Origin: Candidatus Multivoradales bacterium
GTDB taxonomy: Bacteria; Acidobacteriota; Thermoanaerobaculia; Multivoradales; Multivoraceae
Length of the DNA: 64,000 nt
Assembly (NCBI GenBank): GCA_965223325.1
Contig: CBDCWI010000002.1
Location: 1,984,001-2,048,000 of the forward strand
Reading direction: 5' to 3'
The translations under genes were made by a program, and so were the position numbers. Below, piece by piece: positions 10,317 to 48,200 of this stretch. Position 1 is the first letter of the stretch; each line of letters starts with the position of its first letter. The notes under the pieces were generated by a model. It saw only the letters and a program-made list of their open reading frames with translations, was not told the origin of the DNA and did not search any database.

Positions 10317-10323
10317 TGAAACC

Positions 10324-30407: not shown

Positions 30408-31469
30408 ATGAGAGCCATACGCCTCCACGAAGGCAGTGAGATGCGGGTCGAAGACGTTCCAATGCCCGAGGCCGGTGCGGGAGAAGTACTCGTTCAGGTC
30501 CAGGCGGCGGGCGTGTGCGGTACCGACCTCCATGCCGCCCACGGCCACCTGCCGGTAGCGCAGCTTCCGGTCACCATGGGCCACGAGGGAGCCGGCATCA
30601 TCAGCGCGGTCGGCCCAGGTGTCGATTCGGATCTCGAGGGCGCGCGTGTTCTGCTCCTACCCAGCGAAACCTGCGGCCAGTGCGCGGCCTGTCGGGTTGG
30701 CCATCTCGGTCTGTGCGCGAAGGCAAAGATCTTCGGCATGGCGCGCGACGGCACCTTCGCAGAAGCGATCGCCGCTCCGGCCAGTTGCGCCATCCCCTTG
30801 CCCGCATCTGTCCCCTTCGAGCACGGCGCCATTCTCGCCGACGCCGTGGCCACGGCCTGCCACGCTGTCGCCACCCGCGGCGCGATCACGGGAGGCGAGC
30901 GGGTCGCCGTCATCGGTTGCGGCGGCGTCGGCTACCACGCGATTCTGATTGCTCGGCTGCTCGGTGCCGAGAGGATCGTTGCCGTTGACGCGAGCCTTGG
31001 AGCCCTCGATCGAGCGCTCGCCGCCGGAGCCGACGTCGCCATCGACGCGCGAGACGAGGGTGCCTCCAAAGCGATCTTCCAGGCCGCCGGCAGCGGCGGA
31101 CCCCACGTCGTCATCGAGTACGTCGGCCGTGCGTCGACGGTCGAGCTGGCCCTCGGCTGCGTCGCACGTGGTGGCTCGGTCGTGGTCGGCGGTGTCGGCA
31201 TGGACGCCCCGCGCCTGCCCCCGCTGCTCTCCTTCGTCGGCCGCGAAGTCTCGCTTCTCGCGTCCATGGGCTACACGAGAGCTGAGCTCGACCAGGTCGT
31301 GGCCTGGGCCGCCTCGGGCGAGCTCGACCTGTCGAAATCGATCACCGCGCGGTATCCGCTCGAAGACGCACCGCAGGCGATCGACGACCTGGCCCATCGA
31401 CGCGGCGATCCAGTGCGCCTGGCCCTCTTTCCAAAAGAGCAGTTCGCGGAGCTACCCGGCGACCGCTAG
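30408..31469 (+). CDS. Zn-dependent (MDR) alcohol dehydrogenase
   Basis: GVCGTD, GHE, CxxCxxC...C and GCGGVG motifs. ATG at 30408. Confidence 0.92.
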   Translation: MRAIRLHEGSEMRVEDVPMPEAGAGEVLVQVQAAGVCGTDLHAAHGHLPVAQLPVTMGHEGAGIISAVGPGVDSDLEGARVLLLPSETCGQCAACRVGHLGLCAKAKIFGMARDGTFAEAIAAPASCAIPLPASVPFEHGAILADAVATACHAVATRGAITGGERVAVIGCGGVGYHAILIARLLGAERIVAVDASLGALDRALAAGADVAIDARDEGASKAIFQAAGSGGPHVVIEYVGRASTVELALGCVARGGSVVVGGVGMDAPRLPPLLSFVGREVSLLASMGYTRAELDQVVAWAASGELDLSKSITARYPLEDAPQAIDDLAHRRGDPVRLALFPKEQFAELPGDR

Positions 31470-31540
31470 GCGAGCTCGCGAGTCCACCAGCAGCCAAACA
31501 ACTTCAATCGACAACGAGCTACACCCTCAAGGAGACATCC

Positions 31541-32344
31541 ATGGCCGGTTACGAAGACAAGTACAAGCACCTTCTGCTCGAACGGCGAGAACGCGGCATC
31601 ACCATCCTGACGTTCAACCGCCCCGAGAAGAGGAACGCCGTGTCGCAGGAGGTCCACGACGAAATCGAGGACATGTTCCGTGAGATCGGCGAAGACCAGA
31701 CGATCAGCGCACTGGTCATCACCGGTGCCGGTGATGCCTTCTGTGCCGGCGGCGATGCCACCGGCATGACCAGTGGCTCGATGGTCCCGAAAGGCGCAGC
31801 AACCCCGTTTCGCTCGGTGCGCAAGCTACTCCACAGCCTACTCGAGATCGAGCAGCCCGTCATTGCCGCCGTCAACGGCCCCGCCTTTGGCCTGGGCGCC
31901 AATATCGCGCTCTTCAGCGACATCGTCATCGCCGCGGACGACGCACGCATCGCCGACAACCACGTCCGCATGGGCCTCGTCTGCGGTGATGGTGGCGTCA
32001 TCATCTGGCCGCTTCTCATCGGCTTCAACCGCGCCAAGGAGTACCTCTTCACCGGCGAGCCCATTACCGGAAAACAAGGGGCCGAAATGGGACTGGTCAC
32101 CCGGTCGGTACCGCGCGAGAACGTACTGCCAGTGGCACTCGAATGGGCGGAGCGACTCGCAGCGCTCGCACCGAAGGCACTGCGCTGGACGAAGTACTCG
32201 ATGAACCGAATCCTGCAGCAACAGGTCGGACACGCCCTCGACGTCTCGACGTTCCTCGAGGCGGCGACCATGGACAGCGAAGATCTACGCGAGGCGGCGG
32301 CGGCCTTCTACGAGAAACGGGAACCCAGGTTCACTGGTCAGTAG
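31541..32344 (+). CDS. Enoyl-CoA hydratase/hydrolase (crotonase) family protein
   Basis: FNRPEKRNA, FCAGGD, AVNGPAFGLG and HVRMGLVCGDGG motifs, with an AAGGAG RBS. Confidence 0.92.
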   Translation: MAGYEDKYKHLLLERRERGITILTFNRPEKRNAVSQEVHDEIEDMFREIGEDQTISALVITGAGDAFCAGGDATGMTSGSMVPKGAATPFRSVRKLLHSLLEIEQPVIAAVNGPAFGLGANIALFSDIVIAADDARIADNHVRMGLVCGDGGVIIWPLLIGFNRAKEYLFTGEPITGKQGAEMGLVTRSVPRENVLPVALEWAERLAALAPKALRWTKYSMNRILQQQVGHALDVSTFLEAATMDSEDLREAAAAFYEKREPRFTGQ

Positions 32345-32627
32345 GCTCACAGAACAAACGGAACTGCGAATTGCGCTTAACGGGTCGCGGACACTAGAAA
32401 CAGAGACGCTCCCACCTTGGACGAGGCCCGAAGGCTCCTCGGTACCCCAGGAAACCGGGCGGGCCGCTCGAGGCGGCGAGCGCAGTGCGATGTGAGGGGC
32501 GCTCGTGACGGGACGGCGGTGTGGCCCCGGTCGGTGTGCTCGACTGAGACCGAGAGGGCACGCGGTGCGCCGCGCACCGCGGGATCGGCCACAACGCTCC
32601 GCTCTTCCGCACCCCGAGCAGGCTCGC

Positions 32628-32673
32628 GGGGAGGCCCCCTGGGGGACCGGACGGGACGACCGGGCGACGGTAC
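32628..32673. repeat. ~45-bp GC-rich repeat, copy 1 (copy 2 at 37269-37312)
   Basis: GGCCCCCTGGGGGACCGGACGGGACGACCGGGCGACGGTAC vs GGCCCCTGGGGGGCCTGACGGGACGACCGGGCGACGGTAC. Confidence 0.8.
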
Positions 32674-33590
32674 CCGCAGCTCACCCGTTTCCTCGCTGCG
32701 CGACCAGACCCAATCACCGATCTCGATTTCCCCGATCGGTTTCATCCCGGTCTCCGTCCACACCGGAGTGCCTGCGACGAAGCACTTCTGAGGCGTCGCG
32801 GTACGACCCACTGCCTGTGGAGTTGCTGTCCGTGGCTTCGGCGAGGTTGTGCTCTGTTGAGCACTCCGTCTTGCACGGTTGGAGGCGTTCAAGGCGGCTA
32901 CTGCTTCGTCAGCTCGCTTGGCTGCCTGCTCGCCCACTTCGGCCACGCTCTTCGCAGTGGCTCGGCCTGTGCTCCTGGCCGTACTCCGCCCTGCGCTACC
33001 CGCGTTCAGGCTCTGGGCTACGAAGGACGTGAGCTTCGTCTGCGACGCCGCATCGCCCCTCGCCGCACCGACTACGACCTCCCCGGCGCCTTTCGCCAGC
33101 TGGGTCGCCACCTCTTCTGGGTTCTCCGAGATGACGTCCCACGTGTCGGACAAAGCGCCCATCGTCTCGACGAGGCGCTCCTCCGCCTCCCTGCCCATCG
33201 TCGTGTCGGGAGACAGGCTCGCAACCATTCCGTCGGCCACGAAGCTCGTCGCATCAACACCGAAAGCGAGAACGTCGGCACCGGCACCGAAGACTCCCAG
33301 CGCCACGGCCGCTCCACCCTTCAGACGACGCGTCACGAAGTTGTCACCGAAAGCGTGATCGATTTCCTCGGCGAGGTCGCCGGATGCCTCAGCGGCCTCG
33401 TCCGTCCCTCCCCGCCTGAGGAAACCCGAGAAGCGCTCGAGAATGTCGATCCTCCCATCAGGATCGATCCACACCGTCGGGTTGACCTTGCCGAAGGTGT
33501 ACCAGTGCAGCGAAGGTGGATCGGACAGGTCGCCAAAGACCGGATCTTCGGTGAGGAACCTCCCCACTTGTGGGTCATAGAAGCGGGCTT
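32674..33590 (-). pseudogene. Orphan Rhs tip cassette 4: core end, pre-toxin helices and a truncated Hint domain; toxin and immunity absent
   Basis: ARFYDP...NPTVWIDPDGR, then CFVAGTPVWTETGMKPIGEIEIGDWVWSRSEETGE, broken at ~32674. The frame runs on in non-protein-like sequence to 32377. Confidence 0.85.
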
Positions 33591-33757
33591 CTAATGTCCC
33601 TACCGCGATCTAGCCCTAGACCGCTGATTCCCTGAGAGTTACCTCGATCTCGGCGTTGCTATGCCCCCACCGCGAGGTTTCAGGACCGCGCAGCCGCCAC
33701 ACGCCGTCGGAACGTCCCCCCGACCGTGCGCGGCAACGCCGCGCGATCTGGCGACTT
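33591..33757. repeat. Inter-cassette spacer copy A (156-bp module plus terminal CTGGCGACT; middle deleted)
   Basis: Aligns by eye with 35190-35345, 39409-39562 and 41500-41655. Confidence 0.9.
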
Positions 33758-33843
33758 CAGTCCGCTCTTGCCGGTAACCAGCGACTGGTTGTGCCGTTGG
33801 ACCGACCCAGTCGACACTCGAAAGACTCTGCCATCGCTCGTCG

Positions 33844-34083
33844 CTAGCTAGTTCCATCGTCTCCATGAAGCGCGGCTATCGCCCGTTCTAGGGCCACCGA
33901 GAAGTCCGTAGCTACAAGTTCAAGGTTGGCGGATCCAGCAAAGAGAGTGAGACGGACTTCTCCATCGGTGGCAGCCAAATCAGCAATGATCTCTCCATCG
34001 GCCAGGACCTCGTAGTAGTCAACATCTTCTTGGACGGAATAGACGTGCTGGACCTTGAGGGTTTCGATATGCCGAGTCTTCAT
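33844..34083 (-). CDS. Putative immunity protein of cassette 3
   Basis: 79-aa acidic ORF 17 nt after the toxin stop, with a GAGGT RBS. Confidence 0.7.
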   Translation of the reverse strand: MKTRHIETLKVQHVYSVQEDVDYYEVLADGEIIADLAATDGEVRLTLFAGSANLELVATDFSVALERAIAALHGDDGTS

Positions 34084-34100
34084 TACTTGATCTACCTCAG

Positions 34101-35189
34101 CTATCGCAAGGGGTCTATGAAGCCGATGAACTCGCCATCAGCGGTAAAACGCGCGCCGTGACCACTGGAAACGCGGAACTCAAGCGTGAGACCACTGCGG
34201 GGCAAGACTGGGGTCGTCACTACCCCTTCGTCAAGAATCTTGACAAGCGCACGTTCAGCCATGTCGTTGAGAGCAGCTTGTGACCCAGTCGCAACTTCAC
34301 CGAGGACCGTCTCGGCCACCTCAGGGTGCTTAGTGAGAGCCCGGCCCGCTTGGGTCAAGCTACCACCCTTGAACGGAGTCGAAGCGACCGCAACCAGCTC
34401 CTCAGCCTCGAACTGACGGCCGCCAACAGTCAGCGGGTTTCGAGCACCGCGACCAACTCCCGCTTTCCCTAGATCGACGGCTTCGTCAGCCAAACGGAGC
34501 GCACCGAATCCGAGCGCCGCTTCAGCGAAGAACAACTCGGGAGCTACGACTCCCACACTGAAAACGACAAGCTTCGGTGATCTCGGCTACGTACCCGATC
34601 CCCTCAAACCCCTTGTGGAACTGGCACAGGTTGTTGCAGTTCGCCTCAGGCCCAAGGATCGACGACACAATCCTCACGTCTCGACCTCTGCCGGGAACCC
34701 CCTTCTCGTGAGTCAGGTACAGACGAAGCGAAGTCTGGAAGATGTAGTGCTGGTTCTCCCACGTCTGCCCAGGATCACGTTGGTCTTCGAGCCAAATGAA
34801 GATCTCGGTGAGAAACTCCTCACCATCAGCCACCCGCTTCTCCAGCCGCTGCACCTCATGCCGCAGTCGGTTGACCTCGCCAGTCGGATCAGGTCCCGTG
34901 AGCCCAGGGCCTACCTCACCATCTCGGTCTTTGAACCGTTCTTTCCGCTCTTCGAACCTGGCAAGGCGCTGCTCAGCATCAGCAAGCGCGTCACGGCTCG
35001 TCTGCAGTGACTGGCGGTCTGCAGCGTGCTCCTCCAACGTCACGTCGAATCGCCCGTCGGGATCGACGAACACTGTCGGGTTCACCTTCCCGTAGGTGTA
35101 CCAATGGAGCGAGGGCGGATCGGAGAGGTCTCCGAAGACGGGGTCTTCGGTGAGGAAGCGCCCCACTTGTGGGTCATAGAAGCGGGCTT
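34101..35189 (-). pseudogene. Orphan Rhs tip cassette 3 (frameshifted), putative nuclease toxin
   Basis: Rhs core end in ORF 34522-35166. Toxin-like AGRALTKH...GARFTADGEFIGFIDP is in another frame (34101-34556), with the shift near 34575. Confidence 0.8.
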
Positions 35190-35345
35190 CTGATGTCCCT
35201 ACCGCGATCTCACCCTAAACTACTGATTCCAAACGGGTTATCCAGATCCAGGAGTTGCTATGCCCCTACCGTGCACTTTCAGGATCACCAGGCCGCCGAA
35301 CCCCTCGGGAAAGTCCCCCCGACCGTGCGCGGCAACGACGCGCGA
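35190..35345. repeat. Inter-cassette spacer copy B (156-bp module)
   Basis: CTGATGTCCCTACCG...TAAACTACTGATT...CTATGCCCCTACCG...GACGCGCGA. Confidence 0.92.
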
Positions 35346-35463
35346 TGTTCGGCCATCGGAGGTTTGTGATGTCTCTGAGGTGATCGAATCTTCGTCGCGG
35401 TCGCTCTCGATTGTTTGATCTCGTAGCGTTGGTGAGCGCGCGCGCGCTGACCCGGTTGGCGAT

Positions 35464-36507
35464 TCAGCCGAGCGAGTCGTCGAGCACTTCGAGCGCGCGG
35501 TCGCAACCGTCGCCCTCGAGAGCAGAACGCGCCCGAGCCGCGCCCCGACGAACGTGCCCTGCGGCGCCGGTTGGCAGCGCGCGAGCTACAGAGACCAGAT
35601 CGTCGGGCGCGTATTCGGCCAGCACCGCGACGAGCACCGTCGCCTGCCAGAGATCCTTGGCACTCTTGTCACTACCCGAGTCCCTCAGTTCAGCAACCAG
35701 CATCTTGTGCCAGGCGAATCGTTCCGGCCGCGGAACGCGGACAGGAGCGATGCATTCGCGCGCGATCACCACCGCCTCCTTGGAGTCTTCGAGCAGGTAG
35801 CCGAGGTACGGAATTGCAGTGGCGTGCGCTCTCAGTTCCCGTACCTCACGAGTCTCGATCTCACGGCCTCGCCCCGGAACCAGGAGGTCGACGCGGAGCC
35901 GATCTGGGCCGGGCGGTTTGAATGAGGTGGGCTGGCCACCGCGTGCGAGCGATGGCACCGGATGGAAGGGCACAGTGGAGTCCCTGAGGATGCTGAGAAA
36001 GTCGGCCCCGTCGGGCAGCCCGACCTCGAGTGGCCGGCGCCGCGCGATGTCGACGTCTTCGGTTTGGTAGGGGGCGCTGGCGACACCGAGATCGTTGATG
36101 AGGGCACCAAAGGCGTGTGAGCCCACCAAAAGAGCACCCGCTCGGAAGAGACCCGCATTGACCAGAGCAGCGAGAACCGAGCCCGTTCGGATGTCCGCCC
36201 GCGCGTACCCCTGCTCGGCCAGCAACCGGCCCTCTCGCACGAGCTGCTTCTGGATCTCGATCTGCGAACGGATGGAGTCGGCCTTGCGCTCGGCCTCGGC
36301 GTCTCCAGCGCTACCGAGGTAATCGGCAGCCTTTTTCCCCCGCGCGTCGTAGAACTGCCGATAGAGGTACTCCCGGCCCTTGACGATCCGGCTCCCCACG
36401 GTGCCGGGTGTTCCTGCCAACAGGTTCGTTTGTTCGAACGCCCGGCGCTTGAGATCCGAGTAGGCGGTCTGGAAGACCATGGGATGCGCACTGTAGAAAG
36501 TCGTCAT
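35464..36507 (-). CDS. GSU2403-family nucleotidyltransferase-fold protein
   Basis: N-terminal GREYLYRQ...YLG, then GLFRAGALLVGSHAF, TEDVDIA, VDLLVP and VPRPERFAWHKML. GGAGG RBS. Confidence 0.82.
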   Translation of the reverse strand: MTTFYSAHPMVFQTAYSDLKRRAFEQTNLLAGTPGTVGSRIVKGREYLYRQFYDARGKKAADYLGSAGDAEAERKADSIRSQIEIQKQLVREGRLLAEQGYARADIRTGSVLAALVNAGLFRAGALLVGSHAFGALINDLGVASAPYQTEDVDIARRRPLEVGLPDGADFLSILRDSTVPFHPVPSLARGGQPTSFKPPGPDRLRVDLLVPGRGREIETREVRELRAHATAIPYLGYLLEDSKEAVVIARECIAPVRVPRPERFAWHKMLVAELRDSGSDKSAKDLWQATVLVAVLAEYAPDDLVSVARALPTGAAGHVRRGAARARSALEGDGCDRALEVLDDSLG

Positions 36508-36520
36508 GGCGTCCTCCCGG

Positions 36521-36601
36521 GGTTGTTCTCTACGGATGATTGCTAGAGAACAGCCGGCGGAACAAGGTGTTGTTCTCTAGTCTAGCAAACTAGATAACAA
36601 C
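36521..36601. promoter_or_regulatory. Two tandem inverted-repeat operators upstream of the nucleotidyltransferase gene
   Basis: GGTTGTTCTCTA-N11-TAGAGAACAGCC (36521-36555) and GTTGTTCTCTA-N11-TAGATAACAAC (36569-36601). Confidence 0.75.
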
Positions 36602-36701
36602 CAGCCAGTGACTAGGCCGGTGTTGGCCTACTGGACGGTCGAGTTCCGCGCCGCGCGAGCAGCTAAGAGGAGAAAGACCACGTCACCTGCGGCCTCTCGA
36701 T

Positions 36702-36994
36702 CTAGGTCGTCAGCGGGATTCGGCTCAGGTCGCGGCTCCCGCGGACGACCGCGACGATCTCGAGACGCTCCGACCGGGGTAGACGATCCGGTAGCTGTCG
36801 ACGAGGACCTCGCGCAGGCCGAGACCAGGCTTCTCGGGCACTTCACGCCCCGACTGGGGAAAGTCACTCAATCGCTCGGGAGCAGCGAGCAGACGAGCCA
36901 CGAAGCGGCTCGCCCGGTCGACAGAGTCTTCAGAAATGTAGTCGTGAATCGCTTCGAGGTGCCGCACCGAGCGCAGCGACCAGACGACCTTCAT
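36702..36994 (-). pseudogene. RelE/ParE toxin, frameshifted near the C-terminus
   Basis: MKVVWS...IHDYI...FPQSGREVPE...LREV...YRIVY. The expected tail ERLEIVAVVRGSRDL is in another frame, ending at TAG 36702. Confidence 0.8.
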
Positions 36995-37179
36995 CGAGAC
37001 AGCAGGTGCTGCTCTGCCTCGGCCTGGGTCATCACACGCCCTTCGTCCAGGTCGCGCAGCCCCGCTTCGATCTCCTGGCGCACGTAGATCTCGTAGAGCA
37101 GATCCTTCCAGGTGGCGTCGTCGGGAAGCTGGTCGACCAGCTCTCGGGCTTGTTCCTTGATCGTCGTCATCGTGCTCAT
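36991..37179 (-). CDS. Putative antitoxin of the RelE/ParE pair
   Basis: IKEQARELVDQLPDDATWKDLLYEIYVRQEIEAGLRDLDEGRV. Stop overlaps the toxin start. Confidence 0.85.
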   Translation of the reverse strand: MSTMTTIKEQARELVDQLPDDATWKDLLYEIYVRQEIEAGLRDLDEGRVMTQAEAEQHLLSR

Positions 37180-37268
37180 TCTATCGTCCCTCCCGAAGGC
37201 TCAGCCGCCGGGCTCCCCGTCCTTGAGCTCGTGACCGAACTACACGGTACACGGCGCCTACGCACGCC

Positions 37269-37312
37269 GGGGGGCCCCTGGGGGGCCTGACGGGACGACC
37301 GGGCGACGGTAC
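37269..37312. repeat. ~45-bp GC-rich repeat, copy 2
   Basis: Matches 32628-32673. Confidence 0.8.
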
Positions 37313-37410
37313 GGACCAGGCACGCGAGATGATCTCGGCACAAAGGCCCGGGCCGGGGCGCCGGTTGTGACGGCAAGACCCGTTAGAGGCTCAGGATTCC
37401 GCCCGCTCCA

Positions 37411-37438
37411 GGTTGTACATAACTCCGTTATGTCAAGC
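37411..37438. other. dif-like (XerC/XerD-like) palindrome with a 5-bp centre
   Basis: GGTTGTACATAA-CTCCG-TTATGTCAAGC. It resembles the ...CATAA-N6-TTATGT(T/C)AA dif pattern but the centre is 1 bp short. Confidence 0.4.
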
Positions 37439-37453
37439 CCCGAAGGGGCCGAG

Positions 37454-37825
37454 CCGCGGCGTACGAGGGCCAGAGTCGGGGAACGCCGCGTTCCCGGACA
37501 GGCGGATCTGCAAGCGGCGTGACAGAAGGGAGGTCCGAGGAGGGGCCCAATGGCGCGACGCTTGCCCCGCCAGTCTGGCCCGATCCCGGAGGGCGGACGA
37601 CGCGGCGATGCCTGGAACGGGCGGAATCCGGATCGAAGCCTTCTTCCTTAGTGGCTACCAAAAGCCCCGGGCCGGGACGCGATTCGGGTGGCTGCGACGA
37701 TTCGATGGCTCGGCGAGCCCGGGCGGGTGGGCCGGGGGGACTTCCGTTCCGAGAAAGACTGCAGGACGCAGGGCGACGCGCTCCGGCGTCAGCCGGAGTG
37801 CGGCGTCCCGAAGGCCTGGCGACCT
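37454..37825. repeat. Inter-cassette spacer copy E (right-hand ~370 bp)
   Basis: Highly similar to 41657-42025. Together with copy B it reconstitutes one full spacer. Confidence 0.92.
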
Positions 37826-38102
37826 ACTGGCTGTCGTCCGCACCATCGAGCTCCTTGACAACAGAATCTCGGAGGCTCTCGACAAGGGTCAGCCAATCCC
37901 TCAGCTCCGAGGGTCCGGACGTGTCCACAAGGCCCCGGTGCGAGGTAGCGTGATCGAGTAGCGCCTCCAGGGCACATCGCCTCTTGCCTTGGTTGCCGAG
38001 GACATCTTCAGCTAAGCGCTCAATACTCTCCGCATAAGCACAGTGGCCCCCCGCGCGAAGTTCCTCGACTACACTCTGCAGCACATTCTCAAGGTGGCTC
38101 AA
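37824..38102 (-). CDS. Putative immunity protein of cassette 2
   Basis: 92-aa helical ORF. Its TTG start overlaps the toxin stop, with GGAG upstream. Confidence 0.7.
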   Translation of the reverse strand: MSHLENVLQSVVEELRAGGHCAYAESIERLAEDVLGNQGKRRCALEALLDHATSHRGLVDTSGPSELRDWLTLVESLRDSVVKELDGADDSQ

Positions 38103-39408
38103 TCCAGCTCCTCCAAGCGTACGGCACCGGACCTCGTTCCTCCGGCGGTAACCGTCTGCTCACCTCCACCGGCCTTGAAGGTTGGGCCAAACACGGGGTC
38201 GGTCGGCCGGCCTCCCTGGCCCCTGACTTTGCCTTCAAGCAGGATCTGACTCCGCGTTAGTACCGCTCGTCTCACACGGATCGCGTTGTTCTTGCTGGGG
38301 AGCGCGAACAATACGGTTCGGGCAAGTGCTGGAAGGGAGGACGCGGGCCTTACGAAGAGGCCTGATGCTGGCGAAAGAAGCGCACTGTCGGCAAAGAAGT
38401 TCTCGCCAGCCAACCCTCGGCGAGCGGTGATCTTACCCTTGAAGGAGCGAACCACATCCCTCGCTGCCTCGGGCGAGAAACCTCGCTGTTCAAGAAGTCG
38501 ACGAGCACCCTTGTTGTTGATCTTCGCAGGGGCCTGGCTAAGACCCCGGCCAAGATTCGACGCCTCTCGAGCGCGGCGACTCTGAGCAATGTTCTGAGTC
38601 ACCCGCTGACGAATCTCGCTCCGCGCTCGTGGTAAGGCCCTGACACCCGCCTGCAGCAAGGCCGGAGGAGGCGATGGCGCCGCCTCATTGGCAGCCCGCA
38701 CCGCACTACGAGCTCTGCTCGTCCGATTCAAAGACTTGACCGCATCTGCAGCACTGCCGACGGACCTCCTCGCAGCGCCACTGGCTGTTCCAGCGCCCTT
38801 GCTCAGCAAAACCTCCGCAAGAATCTCGGTCTTGAACGCCTGGACCTTGGCAATGGTCTCTGGGTCGCCCGAGGCAAGTTTTCCGGACGTGCTGGCCACT
38901 GCCTTGACCGCGGCGGAAGCCGCCTCGCTTGGATGCTCGACGACGTAGCTGACTCCAGCCTTCACGCCCTCGATCGTCGACTCAATCGATTCCTCGAGCT
39001 CGAGTGCCGCTTCCTGAGCGATCGGGTTGTCGGAGCCCAGGGCAGTGGCGGCACCAACGTTCGCCGAGAAGTTCAGGAAGCCGACACCCCGATCGACGAG
39101 CCCAAGTGCCCCCGCAGCTGAGCCCTTGATCTTCGCTTCTGCCCTGCCTGCGAGGTTCCCCAGCACGGTATCTTCGCCGAACACCGCGTCACTGATGCTG
39201 GCAGCCCCAGCAATGATCTCGGCCTTCTTGGCTCGGATCCTTTCCTGCAGTGCACGCAGCTCAGCGATGCGCCCATCCGGGTCGACCCAGACGGTCGGAT
39301 TCACCTTGCCGTAGGTGTACCAATGCAGCGACGGCGGATCGGAGAGGTCTCCAAAGACCGGATCCTCCGTCAAAAACCTCCCCACTTCAGGGTCATAGAA
39401 GCGGGCTT
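38099..39408 (-). CDS. Orphan Rhs tip cassette 2, putative ART/TNT-fold (NADase-like) toxin
   Basis: ARFYDP...DPDGR core end, then C-terminal LFALPSKNNA...LEGKVRGQ...GGGEQ. No credible start of its own. Confidence 0.8.
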
Positions 39409-39846
39409 CTGATGTCCCTACTGCGAACTCACCTAAATCACTTAATCCATTGAGCTTGCTCGGGTCCGAGGGTTAATATGCCCCCACCGTGCACTTTCGG
39501 GATCGCGAGGCCGCCAAACCCTCGGGAAAGTCCCCCCGACCGTGCGCGGCCACGACGCGCGATCCGAAGAGGGGCCCACTGGCGCGCCGCTTGCCCGACG
39601 GCCTGGCCCGGCCCCCGTGGGCGGACGACGCGGCGACACCTGGGGCCGGCGGAATCCGGATCGAAGCCTCCTACTTTAGAGGCTACGAAGCCCCGGGCCG
39701 GGGCGCGGCTCGGGTGGCTGGGACGGTTCGCAGGAAGGCCGAGCCCGGGCGGGTCGGCCGGGGGACTCCGGAAAAGACTGCAGGACGCAGGGCGACGCGC
39801 TCCGGCGTTAGCCGGAGCGCGCGGCGTCACGGAGACCTGGCGACCT
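39409..39846. repeat. Inter-cassette spacer copy C (internal deletion immediately after GCGCGA)
   Basis: Aligns to copy D with the segment after 41655 missing up to TCCGA(A/G)GAGGGGCCC. Confidence 0.92.
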
Positions 39847-39902
39847 TCAAGTTTCGGTCAAAGATGGTCGCCGGAGCCAAAACTCCCTGCTGGGATCGGG
39901 TC

Positions 39903-40355
39903 TCATTCGACAACGACGGCTGGTCGCCACCGCCTTCTTTCAAAGTACCTTGTTGACTCCTCAGAAAAATGCGCCTCGGCGTGGCCGTTTGCGTAGAGCA
40001 CTAGCTCGACCTGGCCGTCGTCTACCAAGACCGCTACCCGAGTACCTAGGTCACTCGACAATCGGACAGCCGACCGATCGGCAACTACCTCAAGTATCTC
40101 TCGCTCAAGGGACTCCCGCGGCGCGCTGAGGTAGACAGCAACTGCAAAGGCCCTTGAATCTGCGATGGCCCAAAGCGGGCTGCCATCGGTTTCGCCTCTA
40201 GACCGAAGATAGTCGTCCGCATCCCGAGCTTCGTCACCCACGTATGCCACCTCTACGTGAAACGGCCACTTCTCGGAGAGCACATGAGACAGCTTCGCCT
40301 CAACCTCAGAGCAGTCCGAGCTTTCGACACAAAGCACTACGTAGGGGGATGACAT
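39903..40355 (-). CDS. Putative immunity protein of cassette 1
   Basis: 150-aa ORF starting 2 nt after the toxin stop, with lower GC than the core genes. Confidence 0.7.
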   Translation of the reverse strand: MSSPYVVLCVESSDCSEVEAKLSHVLSEKWPFHVEVAYVGDEARDADDYLRSRGETDGSPLWAIADSRAFAVAVYLSAPRESLEREILEVVADRSAVRLSSDLGTRVAVLVDDGQVELVLYANGHAEAHFSEESTRYFERRRWRPAVVVE

Positions 40356-40357
40356 TC

Positions 40358-41499
40358 TCAGAAGTCTTTCGGATTCGGTAGACTGGCCTCATCGACCACC
40401 CGGATCGAAACCGACGGGTCCTTGGGGTTGAATCTTGAGACAAAGCCCTCAAAGGTGGCTAGCGGGACTCTGGAATCAGCCGCTCTAACAACGATAACAA
40501 GGCCACCCTCACCAACCTGGCCGACCCCCTTGTTGAGATCGCGGGCGAGGTTCTTCAGGCCCTTCGCTCGCTTCACCTCAGTGAACTGGTTCAGCGGCTT
40601 CCCTTTCCGTGAGACATGAAGATCTGGCCTCGGGGTCTGCGCTTCCGGAACGAAGCGAACATCCTTTCCCTCAAGTCGCAACAGCTCCGCGACCTTCAAC
40701 TCTGCTACGGCGCTGGTGTCACCCCTTTTCGCCATCCGAACTCTTCTGGAGCGCTCAGCCAAATCCCCTGTGATGCGACCAGCTGTGCCTCCAGACCTAG
40801 CCTTTCCTCTCGGTGAGGCCAGGTTTACTCTCGGTGCACCGGAACCGGCGGAGCGCGTTCTAGCGGCACGAGATGCTCCACGGAGACTTCCCGCTCCCTT
40901 TCCTCCTGCAGCAAACTCCAGTGCCGTCCTCTTAGCTCGAATCTGAGCGTCCGCGTCTCCCTCGACGGCACGGGTACCTACATCGACGACGTTCTCAATG
41001 ATCTCTTTGACGTCCGGAGTCTCTCGCTCGATCTTCTCAAGCACCTCTCGTTGACGAGGCCTGAGTTCGCGATCGGCAATCGTTGAGGAGCTAGAGAGAA
41101 GGCGCTCGTGATCAATGGCCTGGTCGGCACCATGAAGGCCGAACCCAATCACACCGAGCACTGCAGACCCTGCGGCCGCAGCATCCTCGATGCGATTTCC
41201 AATGAAGCCACCAACGACGGGGATCTTCTCGGAGGCCTGGTCCGATAGGTCTGCCGCCGCAGAGATCAAAGTTTCGTCGGCTAGCGCTACCGCCTCCTGA
41301 GCTGTGTCCAGCTTCTCCTGTGCTCCAACGAGGAGTTCGTCCAGCTGCTCTTGGCTCATCCGACCGTCCGGATCGACCCACACCGTCGGGTTGACCTTGC
41401 CGTAGGTGTACCAGTGCAGCGAAGGTGGATCGGTGAGGTCTCCAAACACCGGATCTTCGGTGAGGAAGCGACCGAGTTGAGGGTCATAGAAGCGGGCTT
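40358..41499 (-). CDS. Orphan Rhs tip cassette 1, PD-(D/E)xK nuclease (CdiA tRNase-like) toxin
   Basis: Core end followed by AELKVAELL...RPDLHV...FTEVKR...GQ. An in-frame GTG at 41512 lies in the spacer without a clear RBS. Confidence 0.82.
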
Positions 41500-42025
41500 C
41501 TGATGTCCCCACCGCGATCTCACGCTAAATCACTGATTCCAAACGGGTTATCCCGATCTCGGAGTTGCTATGCCCCCACCGTGGACTTTCGGGATCGCGA
41601 GGCCGCCACTCCCCTCGGGAAAGTCCCCCCGACCGTGCGCGACAACGACGCGCGACCCGCGGCGTACGAGGGCCAGAGTCGGGGAACGCAGCGTTCCCGG
41701 ACAGGCGGATCTGCAAGCGGCGTGACAGAAGGGAGGTCCGAGGAGGGGCCCAATGGCGCGACGCTTGCCCGCCGGTCTGGACCGATCCCGAAGGGCGGAC
41801 GACGCGGCGATGCCTGGAGGGGGCGGAATCTTCGTCGAAGCTTCTTTCTTAGTGGCTACCAAAAGCCCCGGCTCGGGACGCGGACCCGGAGGAGAGGGTG
41901 ACTCGCAGAAAGGCCAGCCCGGACGGATGGGCCGGGGGGACTTCCGTTCCGAAAAGGACTGCAGGGCGCAGGGCGACGCGCTCCGGCGTCAGCCGGAGCG
42001 CGTCGTCCCGGAGACCTGGCGATCT
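41500..42025. repeat. Inter-cassette spacer copy D (longest, 526 bp)
   Basis: 156-bp module (41500-41655) plus a GC-rich structured part with a 14-bp-stem hairpin at 41974-42005. Confidence 0.93.
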
Positions 42026-42052
42026 CATGCACGATCGCAAGGTTGACTTGAT

Positions 42053-42277
42053 TCAGGTTTCGGTGAGGCCGAGCCCTAGGTCGAAGAGCCCGGCCTCTAC
42101 AGTCTCTAGTGCTCTCTCCCAGTCGGCCCAGGCCGCAGGATCTGCTGTTTCACCGTCCGCCAGGAAACTCATGCCACCGAGAAGAGCGCCCAGATCGCCC
42201 GAACCGGTTCTCTTGTACACGCCCTCTAGGAACACAAACATAGCGGCATACGCTTCCTTACTCGTGAGTCTGTCCAT
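42053..42277 (-). CDS. Putative cognate immunity protein of the full-length Rhs toxin
   Basis: 74 aa, EAYAAMFVFLE...DPAAWADWERA. Starts 2 nt after the Rhs stop. Confidence 0.85.
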   Translation of the reverse strand: MDRLTSKEAYAAMFVFLEGVYKRTGSGDLGALLGGMSFLADGETADPAAWADWERALETVEAGLFDLGLGLTET

Positions 42278-42279
42278 CT

Positions 42280-45200
42280 CTATTGTTTCCCTCGCGACAG
42301 CCCGGTGTCAGAATTGAAAGTCCTTGGCTCGAGGTTTAGGCCTCCGTTCTGAACGATCCCATCACGGGTTTGAACCCAAGCCTGGGTACCGTCATCAAGC
42401 GTGCGTGCTGACCACTCGTTACCGAATCTATCGGTTCCCAGAGTCGCTGCTGGATCATCCGCGACGTCGATCAACAGGTTTCGGTTCTCTGGTGTGTCAG
42501 GCAGATGTCCTGGCCTATCTTCGAAAATGTGCTCGAGCTGGGAGTCACCGTCTGGGAACCGAGTAGCCGACTCTGGGGGAGCAGAAGCTCCCCTTGCCGC
42601 ACGAGCTCTCTTCCCTCGAAACGCGCGAACAAACTTCGACCCACCTCGGACCAATCCACCCGCCGCGGTGCCAACCTCGAGCACGGTCCGCTTCGTTCGA
42701 ATCTGAGCTTCTCGATCTCCCCTGGAGGCCTCATACCCGACCTCGACGGCGCTCTCCAAGATGAGAACAGCGCTGTCTTTCGCCTCTTCGACGAGCTGCT
42801 GGTTCGCTTCGAAACCTCTTGTGCGGTGTGGAAGCGCCTCGGGCTCCGCAATCATCGTTATCGGCGACTGCTGATTGTTGGCGTTGATCTCTAGCGCTAG
42901 ATCTACAGCCTGAACAGCACTCGGCGGGATCCGAAGGAGGTTGAGGCCGGCCGAGGCGACAGCTGCCAAGTCTTCAGTTCTTTCAGCAAGCCAGGAGCCT
43001 CCAGGTAGCTCTTCAAGCTTGTCAGCCGCTTCCGCGGCCTTCTCGATAACAGCATCATCGAGCTCGGTGATCATTTCTTGAGCGCGCTCTGCCTTCTCCA
43101 CCACCTCGTCAGGCAGTCCCTCCGGCGCAGAGGGCATTCCGCGTACCTCCACTCGCCCATCGGGATCGACCCAGACCGTCGGGTTGACCTTGCCGTAGGT
43201 GTACCAATGGAGCGACGGTGGATCGGAGAGGTCTCCAAACACCGGGTCCTCGGTAAGGAAGCGGCCCAGCTCCGGGTCATAGAAGCGGGCTTTGGCGTAG
43301 TACAACCCCGTCTCATCATCCAGCTCATGTCCCGTAAACCCGAACACGTTCGCACTCGACCCCACCTGCGAGCGTAGGTTGCCCCACGCGTCCCAGCGGT
43401 ACCTTGCCTTCAAGGCGCCGTCGGGCTGGATCAGGTTGGAGATTGAGCCCAGGGCGTCGAAGAGGTAGAACTGGCGGCCTTCTGAGGTGTTGTTGAGCGA
43501 CAGGAGGCGGTCGGGGCCGTAGTCGTACTTCGAAAGGGTGAAGCCGTTGTCGTCGGTCTGCTGGAGCACGCTCTGGTCGTCGTAGACGTAGCGCACTGTC
43601 CCTTCGGGGCCGCCGCTCTTGCGGATGCGGAGGCCCTGGTAGTCGTACTGGTAGTAGCCCGAGAGGAGGCCGTTGGTGCGCACTTCGGTGAGCTGGTCGC
43701 GGCTGTCGTAGAAGTGCTCGCGGGTCTCGCTGCCCTGGCTGCGGGTGCGCAGGTTGCCGTTCGGGTCCCAGCTGTAGGTCACCGACTGGGTCGCGTCCAG
43801 AGCGTCGATCATTGATTCGATACGGTGGCGGCTGTCGTAGCTGAGCGTTCGGTCGCGGGTGACGCCGCTGGTGCTTGTGTCGACTTCGGTGAGACGGTTG
43901 CCTACGCCGTCGTAGGTGTAGGTGGTGGTCTTGTCGGGGTACACCACCTGGGTGAGGCGGTCGGCCAGGTCGTAGCTGTAGGTCGTGGTCTCGGCGGCGC
44001 CGCCGTTCTCTTCGACCTGGACCGTGCGGTTGCCGTTCCGGTCGTACTCGTACGAGTAGCTCGAGACCAGGGCGCTGTTCCAGCGGTTGGTGATCGTCTC
44101 GGTGCGACCCGCCAGGTCGTAGGTGGTGTCGGCCGTCGTACCGTTCGGGTAGGTAACGCGCTCGAGGCGGCTGTCGCGGTAGTAGCGATACTCAGTCGTT
44201 CCACCGTCGGTGGTCACGGTGGTCGGGCGGTTCAAGCCGTCGAAGGTGTAGGTCGTAGCGAGGCCGTCGGAGTCTTCGAGGCGGGTGCGGTTGCCGTTGG
44301 GGTCGTAGCGGTACGAGAGGGTCTCGCCCTGAGGGTCGGTTACGGTCTCGAGGCGGTCGAAGGTGTCGTAGGTTCTGGTGGTGACGCGGGTGCCGGTTGC
44401 ACCGGTGTACTGCTCCTCGATCAGGGTCGGGTTGCCCGATGGGTCGTAGGTCATCGAGATCTCTGACAAGAAGTCGGTGCGGTCGGGGTCGTTGACCGGC
44501 TCGGGGTAGGTCACCGAGGTCTCTCGATCGAGAACGTCGTAGGAGCGGGTGATCTCCTGGCCTACGGCATCGCGAAGGCCGGTGATGTTGCCGTTCTCGT
44601 CGTAACGCATCGCCTCAGCCGAGCTATCGGCCATGGTCTTGGTGGCCTGGCGGGAGAGGGCGTCGTAGGAGAAGGTGGTGGCACTGTTCTCGGCGTCGAG
44701 GTGCTCGAGGAGGTTGCCGGCCTCGTCGTACGTGTACGACGTCGTACCAGCCGGGGATGTGACGCTCTGAATGCGGTTGGCTTCGTCGTAGCTGTTGCGC
44801 CAGGTACCCCCTTCGGGGCGCTGCGTGAGGGTGCGGTTGCCGGCCAGGTCGTACTCGTAGAGGGTCGTCTCGCCGGCGCCGGTGGTCTCGCTCGAAAGAC
44901 GCTGCCGCAGGTCGTACGCGCGGCTCGACTCACGACCCACGGGATCGATCTCGAGGATGACGCTACCCATGGCGTCGTAGTGGAACACCGTGGTCGACGT
45001 CTCGGGGCGGTTCTCGACCAGCGCCAGGTCGCGCTCGTCGTAGTTCCAGGACGTCGTAGCGCCGTTGGCGTCGGTCTCGGAGACTTTGTTGCCGTTGGCG
45101 TCGTAACGACGTGAAAGCAGCTGCAGCCCATCGCGCGACTGCGCGATGTCGCGGTTCTCGCGATCGAAGGTAAAGCGCTGCGCAATGCCGCGGCGATCGA

Positions 45201-48200
45201 TGTGTTCGACCTGGTTGCCGATGGCGTCGTACTGGAAGGTCTGCACGTAGGACAGCGGACCTGGGTCTTGCTGACGGACGAGGCGGTTGAGGCCGTCGTA
45301 CTCAAACGATGTCGTCAAGCCGCGCGCATTGGTCCTGGTGAGCACATTGCCGACCCGGTCGTAGGTCTGGCTGGTCTCGTAGCGGGCGGTGCTGCCCTCA
45401 TTGCCGAAGCCGGTGGCGGTGGGCGGCAGGATGCGTCTGGTCTCGCGGTTTAAACGGTCGTATTCGATGTCAACCGTGAAACCGCGCACGTCGGTCACGC
45501 TGAGCTGGTTGCCGACGACGTCGTAGGTGAAGGTCTCAACGCGCGGCTGGGTTGCGGGAACTGTAACGGTAGGTAGACGGCGCTCGACGACGCGATCGAG
45601 CGCGTCGTAGTCGAGCTCGGTGCGGTGGCCACGCGCGTTGGTCTCGGCGGTGCGGTTGCCGCGCGCGTCGTATTCGAAGGACGAGATTGCCCCCATGTCG
45701 TCGCTGGTATTCAGCAGGCGGTTGAGGCCATCCCAGTTGGACGTCTGGGTGTTGCCGTTGGGGAACTCTTCGGTGAGCAGGTTGCCGACCGCATCGAAGG
45801 TGCGCACCGTGGTCGCAACAGCTAGACCCTCGGGATGGGTCGCTGACGTCACCCGGTCGAGATGGACTGTGGTTGTCGTGCGCCGGTTGCGCGCGTCGTA
45901 GCTGTGCTCGACCCGGTTGAGGTTGGGGTCGATCTCGGCGACGACGTTGCCCACCTTGTCGTAGCGGAAGGTGGTGGGCCGGTTCTGCGGCTCCCGATCT
46001 TCGGCATCGGTCTGCGTTTCGACCCGGTCGAGAGCGTCGTAGCTGAAGTTGCGAATCTGGTCGGCGATGTCCCAGCTTCCCGAAGCGCTGTAACGCTGGT
46101 TCAGGCGGCGTTCTTCGATGAGGTTGCTCGAGCCGTCGTAGATCCACTGGGTAGTTTTCGCGGCGCCTGACGAGTAGGGCGGCTCGACGAACTCGATGCG
46201 CCGGTTGAGCTCGTCGTAGCGCGAGCTGCTTACCCGTCCCTCGGGGTCGATCTCCTCGACCAGGTTGCCTTCGCCGTCGTAGCGACGCCGGGTCGTCGCG
46301 TCGCCCGCTGCGGTGCCGAAGACCTGGGTGATTTCATCCTGTCGGTTGAGACCGTCGTAACCGAACAGGGTCTCGCGGGTGGGGAACGAGCCATCGCTCT
46401 GATCAAGCAGGGTCTCGCGGATGACGTTGCCTGCCGGGTCGTAGCCGTAGGTCGTGGTGCGATCGAGGGGCTCATCGCGGCGCACCAGACGATCTGCGTC
46501 GTCATACTGAAAGGTCACCTCAGTGCGCAGCGTGTCGGCGTCGAACCAGCCGGTTTCGAGAGTCTTGTTGCCGGCCTCGTCGTAGGCCAGCTCCATGGTG
46601 CCCCCAACCGCGTTCTCGATACGCACCACCCTGCCCTGCAGATCGAACTGTGTGGTGGTGGTACGGCCGGCCGGGTCGGTCTCGGTCTGGACGTTGTTGG
46701 CGTCGTCGTAGCTCGCCGTAGCCGAGGGGCGGCCTGCCTCACCTGCTGCGCGCGGCAGGTCGGTGCGCAGCAGCCGACCGAGACCGTCGTAGGTGAAGTC
46801 GGTGACCCGGCCTTCCTGGTCGGTGCGCGAGAGCGGCAGGCTGCGTTCGTCCCAGACGGTCTCCGTGGTGCCGCCGGGCGAGGGCTCGATGACCCGCGCG
46901 AGGTTGCCGTAGACGTCGTAGGTGAAGGTGGTTGTGAAACCGCGCGGATTGGTGGTGCGAATCCGGTCGCCGTTAGCGGAGTAGGCGTGGGTGGTGGTCA
47001 GGCTCTCGGAGGACTCGAGCCCGGTGACCTGGATCGACTCTTCGATCAGGTTGCCGCGGTTGTCGTAGCCAAACGACGTGGTGTTGCCGTTGCGGTCGGT
47101 GCGCGTACGCAAGCGGTTCTTGATCTTGCCGCCAGCCGGCAAACTGAACGTCTCAGAAGGCCAGTAGGTGTTGACCTGGGTGAAGGTGCGCTCGGTACCG
47201 TCCCACTCACTGCTGAGGGTCTCTTCGCTCAGCAGGTTGCCTTCGCTGTCGTATGTGAAGGTGGTGGTCACCCCGTTGGCATCGGTGCGACTGGTGAGCA
47301 GGATGTCCTGGTCATCCCAGGTCATCAGGCTTTCGTTGCCGAGCGGGTCGACGGTGCGCTGGGGCGAGCCGTAGCCGTTCAGGAACCAGCGGGTGACTTT
47401 GGGGTCGCCGTCGGTGCGGGCGCTCTCGACCTGGGTCTCGAGCTGACCAGAGGAGCGATCGGCAAGTGCCAACGTGTTGTAGACGAACCGTGTCGTGCCG
47501 CCCGCGGTCGTGATGTCGCCCCCGGGCCCGGTCGTTCCCTGGGGCTCCACCAGGTGGTCCACGGCATAGGTGGGCACCTGAATATCACCCTGCACGCCGA
47601 CCGGCTGCTTGATGTACACGTAGCTGGAGAGGGCGGTGTTGAGCTGGTTCTCCACTTCCACGAGCAGGTGGCGCTTCTCCCACAGCGGGGTATCGCCAAC
47701 CTCGAAGTTGTAGCCGTAGCGCTCACTGCGCAGGCCCCCTTCCCGCACAGCGCTCGTCAGATTGCCGTGGATGTCGTAGCCAAAGGTGACGCTTTGATTC
47801 CCCGGACCAGTGATTGCGGTGATGACCTGGCCACTCCAGAGAGCAAAGTCGCGGCGCACGTTGGTGAAGTCGAGGCTGCGCCCACTGGAATCAACGACGC
47901 TGGTGAGCACCCGGTTCTCACCGGCACCGCTATACAGCAGGTCAGTTCGGTTGCCGTTGGTGTCCTCGATGAAATCGAGTTCGAAGTGGTTGTGCTCGCG
48001 CAGGAAGTAGCGGTAGCGGCTGCCATCCCGCGTAAAGAAGTCGAAGGCACCGTTGTCGGTGTCCTGCACCAGGGTGCCGTGGTAGCCACGCAGCGGTGTC
48101 CAACCACCCTGGCCGTCGCCCTCGAAGCGCATGCCCGACCCTTCGGCGCCGATGACGATCGCGATGCCATGCGGCGTGAGGATGAGGCGCGAATCGTAGG

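Follow-up and report, generated by a model that had tools for sequence, protein, structure and literature searches.

Origin of the fixed joint in an array of orphan Rhs toxin tips from Candidatus Multivoradales bacterium

Introduction

The locus described here raises the question of how several unrelated toxin tips come to be joined to the remnant of an Rhs gene at exactly the same base. It lies in a stretch of 64,000 nucleotides from Candidatus Multivoradales bacterium (Acidobacteriota), which we call the window (C2:1984001-2048000 of the source genome, G000; 6.69 Mb in two contigs, C1 and C2, with 64% G+C). A giant Rhs gene, the main gene, is followed on its 3' side by four start-less toxin tips, the orphans, each composed of a piece of the Rhs core, an unrelated tip and a small open reading frame (ORF). 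An earlier note, made from the letters alone, took the fixed breakpoint and a 19-mer conserved at it as pointing to an integron- or shufflon-like library driven by a recombinase. In our analysis, descent from the toxin gene of a mobile element together with ordinary recombination explains the fixed joint better than a dedicated swapping enzyme. We regard an inherited joint with homologous exchange, originating in integrative elements, as the probable explanation, with modest confidence.

Our comparisons with published systems draw on excerpts of the papers cited. Jackson et al. (2009, PMC2935791) proposed that tips travel as circles arising by homologous recombination and describe core fragments of varying length; they also cite the silent-cassette variation of Neisseria pilE/pilS. 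In Salmonella, recombination between a main and an orphan rhs gene involved 522 bp at 95% identity (Koskiniemi et al. 2014, PMC3967940). Integrase-like genes associated with Rhs loci are reported from bee-gut bacteria, in an excerpt that gives no mechanism (Steele et al. 2017, PMC5727410), and the recombinase-associated orphan-immunity arrays of Bacteroidales, called rAID, are presented as having an unknown mode of assembly (PMC12247911). Genomes other than the source are referred to here by codes (G###), with their contigs (C#) and fetched loci (L###).

Results

A displacement array with one joint

The protein of the main gene matches the Pfam families RHS_repeat (E 8e-125, 16 stretches), DUF6531 and Transglut_core, a transglutaminase-like domain, and with its RHS repeats and conserved core end (...NPTVWVDPDGR) it has the features of a full-length rhs product. 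The last 148 nt of the core, from ARFYDP to DPDGR in translation, are the sole stretch of the main gene that the orphans share. Their core remnants are 137-148 nt long and 85-88% identical to the main gene (also given as 83-88%). Homology to the main gene begins at AAGCCCGC in 4/4 window orphans, and a further orphan copy on C1 starts at the same base, which bears out the base-precise joint claimed in the earlier note. Upstream of the joint lies a module of about 156 nt, common to all four orphans and fused to the core at one base (pairwise identity 72-89% over ten pairs, the C1 copy included). Stop codons in frame are found 7-22 codons before the joint. A possible start exists for tip1 only, an in-frame GTG at 41512, 5 codons upstream of the joint, where the other three orphans have GTA. 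Promoter-like sites for the orphans are at chance level, one being found for 0.9 expected.

We read the locus as an Rhs C-terminal displacement array, with one expressed giant gene and four silent tips, one frameshifted and one truncated, that are accompanied by likely immunity genes. The four tips of the earlier note are all present; its description needs amending in that tip3 is frameshifted, tip4 is broken in its Hint domain, and an insert with ParE and NTP_transf_8 genes separates tip2 from tip3. The toxin domain of tip3 continues in an overlapping frame (34101-34556), whose residues 67-149 are 42% identical to a toxin tip of genome G071, and tip4 ends within its Hint domain near 32700 (Hint_2, E 0.0011, under the Pfam cut-off). 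A sixth copy, comprising module, core end and most of tip2 (about 1 kb), lies on C1. Between the immunity gene and the next module, three of the cassettes carry a block of about 280-370 nt, which has three copies in the genome, all inside the array.

The tip of the main gene itself is related to those of other genomes. Its residues 202-332 are 54% identical to the toxin tip of an element unit in G071. The 74-aa ORF that follows it has no Pfam match and is likely its immunity gene, because it is 60% identical to the ORF that follows the homologous toxin in G071.

The 19-mer at the joint

The 19-mer is exact at 33572, 35171, 39390, 41481 and 43274, as the earlier note had it, with 0 expected from 100 shuffles, and the C1 copy adds a sixth occurrence (C1:1782124). 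As the note also observed, it contains a rare codon, TAT making up 14 of the 123 Tyr codons of the main gene. When the six copies are compared for synonymous change, 39 of the 49 codons encode an invariant degenerate residue. The third base is invariant in 10 of these 39, and in 5/5 of the first five codons (A R F Y D), so that the excess of synonymous conservation for which the note proposed a test is indeed found. Beyond the 19-mer the many synonymous differences it mentioned are equally evident: third positions are 46-76% identical and first and second positions 91-99% (15 pairs). The core remnants have therefore diverged deeply under protein-level selection, and the 19-mer has not diverged. 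By our arithmetic, invariance in five of five codons has a chance of (5/34)^5, or about 7e-5, if these codons change as fast as the remainder of the remnant; the chance is only about 0.03-0.1 if the left edge evolves at the slower rate of the adjoining module. In the 300-nt unit of the five orphans no invariant run exceeds the 21 nt at the joint, and those that follow in length have 10 and 8 nt.

The joint also carries a dyad, GGGACAT(N)AGAAGC-CC-GCTTCTATGACCC, formed by the last 12-14 nt of the module and the 19-mer. It is present at 4/4 window joints, and its criterion is satisfied by 17 of 4266 window bins, four of which are the orphan joints. Each of the four orphan joints is predicted to form a hairpin, and the main gene is not. 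As single-stranded DNA the hairpin is weak: its folding energy is -5.9 to -6.7 kcal/mol, which is equalled or bettered by 8-30 of 200 shuffles. Among 28 main-type genes from other genomes the codons for ARFYDP vary freely, with the window's 17-mer in 1/28, so that the identity of the 19-mer is a feature within this genome. The joint dyad is unconserved in G075, the only other genome with the same joint.

Origin of the module

The earlier note recognised the module as shared by every tip and called it non-coding; shared it is, but it is more than a mere spacer. A profile built from the DNA of the five modules matches the 3' coding end of the N-domain in short toxin genes of relatives (E 0.0036 for G055:C106; 0.019 for G075:C22, or 0.02 in the overlapping locus L111; 0.078 for G075:C20). 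Among about 1.2 Mb of foreign loci, matches at the equivalent spot make up four of the top five by locus. The relatives' short toxins consist of a signal-peptide-like start, an N-domain ending in ...RVW(G/A)..L...QWF.(G)EIAVG, the Rhs core end and a variable tip. The window module reads ...GEIAVGTSE|ARFYDP in frame, and just upstream of this stretch it has TGA for TGG, a stop, and a deletion of 1 nt. Because four profile matches fall at the equivalent spot and the IAVG is in frame, we identify the module as the decayed 3' end of the N-domain of a short signal-peptide toxin gene with an Rhs end, cut at its 5' side by a terminus of insertion sequence (IS) type. The fixed breakpoint would then have a simpler source, namely the fusion point of an ancestral short toxin gene, which G075 has in common with the window.

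Other searches returned less. Module plus core, compared by BLAST with 60 relatives, was matched in the core part only; comparing the module with N-domains by blastx yielded nothing convincing (E >=0.05). The exact module pattern had no match among metagenome contigs or genome contigs, and a looser one, run on 300 genomes of the order with a gap 1 nt too narrow to match G075, hit the source genome only. A search for the joint pattern found G075, plus four unrelated genes with a chance IAVG...ARFYE match. A structured RNA, ribozyme or splicing element in the module was considered and dropped: positions 31000-44500 had no Rfam match at E<=1, and by our reading the main gene holds no matching 5' site for a ribozyme or splicing reaction. 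In consensus folds of the five modules, 3 of 44 pairs (minus strand) and 6 of 34 (plus strand) had changed on both sides.

The first 32-46 nt of the module form its head, a hairpin GCGCGGC-GTT-GCCGCGC followed by ACGGTCGGGGGG. Over 46 nt it is about 89% like the 42-bp terminal inverted repeat of a 1394-bp element with a Y1_Tnp gene. A degenerate pattern of the head has 14 genome matches, 10 at copies of the Y1 element and four at Rhs modules, these being three window modules and the C1 copy; the head before tip2 deviates from the pattern. Four different sequences precede the module, namely the block, the NTP_transf_8 gene, the 79-aa ORF and, on C1, a 227-aa ORF, and its start agrees to within 1-2 nt among them.

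Terminal inverted repeats are unusual in elements of the IS200/IS605 type. The 1394-bp IS-like element has them (e.g. G000:C2:4473644-4475037), with a hairpin of 7-bp stem, and encodes a Y1_Tnp (IS200-like) protein of about 330 aa. By BLAST the element has 10 copies of more than 1200 nt, which cluster towards the ends of the two contigs.

Traces of exchange and recombinase genes

The copy of tip2 on C1 allows the position of one exchange to be read off. Window and C1 copies are identical from about core nt 72 onwards for about 1 kb, and upstream of this there are 21 differing sites in core nt 20-71, and the modules are 14% different. One tip thus has two left flanks, and the crossover fell within the remnant and away from the 19-mer. 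Compared in pairs, the six copies give mosaic maps of mismatches. Mosaic structure and internal crossover are the mark of homologous recombination or gene conversion and do not fit an exchange confined to the 19-mer.

As the earlier note stated, the window holds no recombinase gene, whether of tyrosine, serine or Y1 type; the genome has 9, 4 and 28 matches, respectively, all elsewhere, and the nearest PF00589 match is about 216 kb from the array (9 in the genome). All repeats of module, core and head are direct, and the earlier note's likening to a shufflon falls with this. Neither joins between the main gene and an alternative tip nor circles were seen in the contigs of four public runs (one study, two samples, assembled contigs), which break at repeats and miss rare forms. 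In three of the four runs contigs join 31859 to 38911 with 13 other letters between, which may be the array end of a variant strain or an assembly artefact; several further short-sided joins in the run contigs may likewise come from other strains.

Related arrays and integrative elements

The 46-residue core end is matched in 118 of the 300 genomes of the order, many of which have Rhs genes of 3550-4000 aa. Breakpoints in the short frames of relatives lie 0, 6-7, about 22, 69, 94, 138-287 and >700 codons upstream of ARFYDP. They are generally variable, so the breakpoint is not fixed across related loci as would be expected from the earlier note; G075:C20 is the exception. In this contig the end of the main core recurs in a second copy; the stretch that the two have in common, 141 bp with one mismatch, begins at GCCCGCTTCTA, within 2 nt of the start of homology in the window (AAGCCCGC), and about 36 nt before the joint resemble the end of the window module. 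Between the two copies lie a tip, a 1014-aa protein with CHC2-primase and Toprim domains and a PF00589 integrase; the second copy forms an intact short ORF whose start resembles a signal peptide. G075:C20 thus has element genes between direct target repeats, of which the window keeps block-like and N-domain remnants only. A candidate orphan with 0 upstream codons in G292 proved to be a degraded long remnant with no joint at ARFYDP and was set aside.

The pair of primase and integrase genes recurs upstream of short toxin genes in G064:C1 and beside a tip in G042:C198. In G071 (L107-L109, C5:918001-978000) there are seven tandem units of a CHC2-primase gene, a tyrosine integrase gene, block-like sequence and a short toxin with a variable tip, the toxins being signal-peptide ORFs of about 365-380 aa with the Rhs core end. 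It looks as if integrative elements had accreted in this array, the main difference between them being the toxin end. The intercassette block of the window is itself related to such elements, with identities of 70-81% overall (E down to 7e-25): copy 1 is 76-81% identical to sequence inside the primase/integrase elements of G075, G064 and G071, and copy 3 is 70-75% identical over 171-270 nt to sequence just 3' of the G071 integrase genes and 76% over 170 nt to G075. No remnant of an integrase gene was detected in the block by blastx. The element primase has homologues in 21 of the 300 genomes and 0 matches in the source genome. The recombinase that the earlier note suggested looking for beside the joint therefore does occur in relatives, as a tyrosine integrase on their elements, but not at this array. 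In the literature, covered mostly at the level of titles and the openings of abstracts, we found no description of primase/integrase elements carrying short toxins with Rhs ends.

A different arrangement is seen in G083 (L102-L103, C50:184001-220000), with four tandem primase/integrase units directly 3' of a 3750-aa Rhs gene; where units one and two were compared, over 1.6 kb, they are 100% identical. It was rejected as an example of the same joint; its repeat starts about 650 nt after ARFYDP, inside the tip.

Other features of the locus and genome

The coordinates of the array are collected in Table 1. Upstream of the main gene a second giant ORF of at least 3541 aa (53373-63998, minus strand) extends beyond the window; its end and the start of the Rhs gene have 4 nt in common, and it is likely an operon partner. 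In the insert between tip2 and tip3, the ParE gene with its small upstream ORF (36725-37179) matches PF05016 (E 8.5e-13) and the NTP_transf_8 gene (35464-36507) matches PF12281 (E 1.9e-38); these genes may be addiction modules left by an element. A direct repeat of about 50 nt (32628-32700 and 37262-37312) with the palindrome GGCCCCC...GGGGGCC flanks a 4.7-kb segment with the toxin-antitoxin-type genes, tip3 and the truncated tip4, which breaks at the repeat.

The copy on C1 (L001, G000:C1:1772000-1791000, at about 7755-12414), with the 227-aa ORF upstream of it, lies between two inverted IS3-type copies in the manner of a composite transposon, and it adjoins a further Rhs gene, of 1346 aa, with a different core end. 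Another Rhs locus (G000:C2:2354593-2365922) has a 1920-aa main gene and then an orphan with a core remnant of about 590 aa. Its third core end, DYMHARYYYP...DPYGLD, starts right after the stop codon of the immunity gene and is cut by a copy of the Y1 element directly after DPYGLD; the interval from main gene to orphan holds a solo terminal repeat.

Table 1. Features of the Rhs array, with positions in the window
Feature	Position	Strand	Remarks
Main Rhs gene	42280-53376	minus	3698 aa; from ORF and Pfam
Own toxin tip of the main gene	from ~43152, after DPDGR	minus	
Main core end, last 148 nt (ARFYDP...DPDGR)	43145-43292	minus	starts with the 19-mer at 43274-43292
74-aa ORF after the main tip, likely immunity gene	42053-42277	minus	60% identity to G071 counterpart
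Intercassette block, copy 1	41653-42025	minus	13-bp perfect hairpin and terminator-like stems
Module 1	41500-41655	minus	IS-terminus-like hairpin head of ~32-46 nt, then ~110 nt of pseudogenised N-domain remnant
Orphan 1	40358-41499	minus	core remnant 41352-41499 and tip1; no Pfam match
150-aa ORF after tip1, likely immunity gene	39903-40355	minus	role suggested by position; no Pfam match
Intercassette block, copy 2	39563-39846	minus	~80 nt shorter than copy 1 on the module side
Module 2	39409-39562	minus	
Orphan 2	38099-39408	minus	core remnant 39261-39408 and tip2; near-identical copy on C1 with another left flank
92-aa ORF after tip2, likely immunity gene	37824-38102	minus	putative role; no Pfam match
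Intercassette block, copy 3	37331-37825	minus	runs on into element-like sequence, not into a module
Insert between tip2 and tip3 cassettes	35464-37179	minus	small ORF and ParE gene, then NTP_transf_8 gene
Module 3	35190-35345	minus	
Orphan 3	34101-35189	minus	core remnant 35042-35189 and tip3, frameshifted near 34522-34556
79-aa ORF after tip3, likely immunity gene	33844-34083	minus	putative role; no Pfam match
Module 4	33591-33746	minus	
Orphan 4	32628-33590	minus	core remnant 33443-33590 and tip4

Discussion

The course of events that we infer begins with a founder, a short signal-peptide toxin gene whose N-domain, ending in ...QWF.GEIAVG, would have been fused to the last 46 codons of the Rhs core. 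In relatives, genes of this type sit on integrative elements encoding a CHC2-primase protein and a tyrosine integrase; the left flank of every orphan would descend from the single founder. An IS-type terminus would have shortened the N-domain to about 110 nt, and the decay that followed (TGG to TGA and the 1-nt deletion) would have left the module of 156 nt. The unit of module and 148-nt core end would then have spread, with tips being swapped by homologous recombination or gene conversion within the 148-nt homology. Cassettes could be excised and re-inserted by a single crossover in the same 148 nt, in keeping with the circular intermediates proposed by Jackson et al. (2009). All displaced tips would have the same joint because the exchanges fall within the homology that lies 3' of the inherited fusion, and the expressed tip would be switched by a crossover between the core ends of the main gene and an orphan.

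Exchange of the RecA type in E. coli needs roughly 20-30 bp of identity. Since there is no identity run longer than 10 nt elsewhere, the island of 19-21 nt would be the sole run long enough to seed crossovers efficiently, and it may have been kept or homogenised for that.

Several observations weigh against this inherited joint with homologous exchange. Neutral descent does not predict the excess of synonymous conservation, the rare TAT codon or the dyad at the joint. The core ends are a poor substrate for RecA, with 137-148 nt at 83-88% identity and identity runs of <=10 nt outside the 19-mer. Each profile match behind the origin of the module is weak when taken by itself (E 0.004-0.08). That the module begins at one and the same base in its different contexts would not be expected from random deletions, and this base is the outer end of the terminus-like hairpin. 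And finally, no switching event was observed in the contigs of the public runs.

Some of these points would fit an integron-like library. The island of about 40 nt at the joint would here be the core site of a tyrosine recombinase that excises and inserts cassettes in trans. Its left arm, GGGACAT(N)AGAA, would lie in the module, its right arm, TTCTATGACCC, in the core and the spacer GCCCGC between them; the main gene, which has right arm and spacer only, would offer a half-site as acceptor. The enzyme might be the integrase of the relatives' elements or a chromosomal one. Such a site would account for the dyad at all four window joints and its rarity among window bins, for the longest invariant run of the unit falling exactly at the joint, and for five invariant synonymous sites that include a rare TAT whose last base pairs in the dyad. 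Homologous cassettes in G075, G064, G042 and G071 do adjoin tyrosine integrase genes, and in G071 seven units have accreted in tandem. However, no integrase is found in the window or within about 216 kb, and the genome lacks a homologue of the element primase. The one mapped crossover lies at about core nt 72, away from the site, the dyad is not kept in G075 and the hairpin is weak as single-stranded DNA. Moreover, 12 of the 19 bases are dictated by the protein sequence, and the contigs contain no switched or circular forms, although rare forms would be undetectable there. We therefore consider this explanation unlikely. The joint, its conservation, the dyad and the integrases beside the relatives' cassettes are what stands of the case for a recombinase-driven library in the earlier note; the internal crossover, the variable breakpoints of the relatives and the lack of a recombinase in the window go against it.

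The exact left boundary of the module might instead reflect mobilisation by a Y1 (HUH) enzyme, for which the hairpin head would be a REP- or IS-end-like site, the units being moved or copied as single-stranded DNA. The likeness of the head to the terminal repeat of the Y1_Tnp element, the 28 Y1_Tnp matches in the genome, the distribution of the head pattern (four of 14 matches at Rhs modules, the other 10 at Y1-element copies), the start of the module at the terminus in four upstream contexts and the element copy and solo repeat of the second Rhs locus are all in keeping with it. IS200/IS605-type enzymes cut near their hairpins, and a head 156 nt from the core joint is far from such a position. 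A second end, direct or inverted, is not identifiable for each cassette, and a single ancestral IS insertion into the short toxin gene accounts equally well for the head. The block before module 2 would seem to have lost 80 nt in a deletion between CGG repeats, and the relocation to C1 is explained by the two bracketing IS3-type copies. Mobilisation of this kind seems to us quite improbable. Even more doubtful is a reason at the level of RNA or expression, in which the hairpin would insulate or stabilise immunity transcripts or tune the translation of orphans and the island would be unrelated to DNA exchange. It could draw on the hairpin predicted at each orphan joint and absent in the main gene, on the in-frame coding of the island in relatives (IAVG...ARFYDP) and on the GTG of tip1, but the other three orphans have GTA and stops 7-22 codons upstream, promoter-like sites are at chance, Rfam gives no match at E<=1 and covariation in the module is weak (3/44 and 6/34 pairs). 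It also leaves the identical 19-mer of the main gene unexplained.

The dyad with its TAT codon and the exact left end of the module keep the recombinase site and the Y1 enzyme alive as rivals; the defining feature of neither was found in the window. Either enzyme could belong to a mobile tip-swapping system of which the array would be the non-autonomous form. Short cassettes of N-domain remnant with hairpin head, core end, tip and immunity gene would be excised and inserted at the dyad-symmetric island of 19-21 nt by a tyrosine integrase or Y1 transposase acting in trans, a reading to which we allow a small chance of being right. If it were true, the giant Rhs gene and the short secreted toxins of elements would trade ends at one base, as an integron-like library inside a coding sequence.

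Among known systems, the locus fits the Rhs orphan-tip arrays in all tested features but the variable remnant length. Like the displacement arrays described in excerpts from Enterobacteria and bee-gut bacteria (PMC2935791, PMC3967940, PMC5727410), it has a full rhs gene followed by start-less fragments of core, tip and immunity gene. It differs in that its remnants are of equal length and joined to the same foreign sequence, where remnants of variable length would be expected (PMC2935791), and in that the left flank is the remnant of a separate short toxin and not upstream Rhs core. The homology is also far shorter and more diverged than that of the Salmonella example (137-148 nt at 83-88% versus 522 bp at 95%; PMC3967940). 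By eye, the spacing of the core-end motif differs from the DPXG-(18)-DPXG given in the excerpt of Jackson et al. (PMC2935791). With Neisseria pilE/pilS the array has in common that silent partial copies donate variable ends by host recombination, with short conserved stretches; that system converts antigenic segments, whereas here a pair of toxin and immunity genes would be replaced and switching would have to be supposed.

The likeness to integrons consists of ordered promoter-less cassettes, a dyad at the cassette boundaries as a candidate palindromic site and a single acceptor at an expressed gene. In contrast to integrons there is no adjacent integrase, the cassettes would fuse in frame into a coding sequence and not behind a promoter, and the one mapped crossover lies elsewhere than at the boundary site. 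The direct repeats and the lack of a recombinase in the window likewise differ from a shufflon, in which repeats are inverted. Mobile units of the IS200/IS605 and REP/RAYT kinds have a Y1 transposase and cognate hairpins at both boundaries; here each module has a similar hairpin on its left, no second end was found, and the Y1 genes (28 matches) are present in the genome but not in the window. As in rAID, co-oriented short toxin-defence genes are combined with conserved intergenic motifs; according to the excerpt, rAID is defined by a recombinase at the array, of the tyrosine type, which is lacking here, and holds immunity genes and not fusible tips (PMC12247911). The G071 array differs from rAID in having one integrase per unit.

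A further parallel is with islands that target tRNA genes, integrative elements that enter a gene at its 3' end and supply a new end in place of the old one. The element of G075 resembles them, with 11.7 kb, an integrase near one end and 141-bp direct repeats of the Rhs core end. It differs in that the replacement end is a different toxin, so that the product changes, and the window keeps the element ends only.

Orphan Rhs tips are well known, and this locus with its relatives gives a lead on how tips arrive and how arrays are built. The short toxins of the elements end in the last 46 or so codons of the Rhs core, and pairs of toxin and immunity genes are common to the elements and the giant Rhs genes. 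In G075 an element of this kind separates the main gene from a second copy, with that core end on either side, and the window appears to show the decayed outcome of such insertions. The locus can thus serve as a test case for whether an island of 19 nt is a practically site-specific point for host recombination or a true recombinase site.

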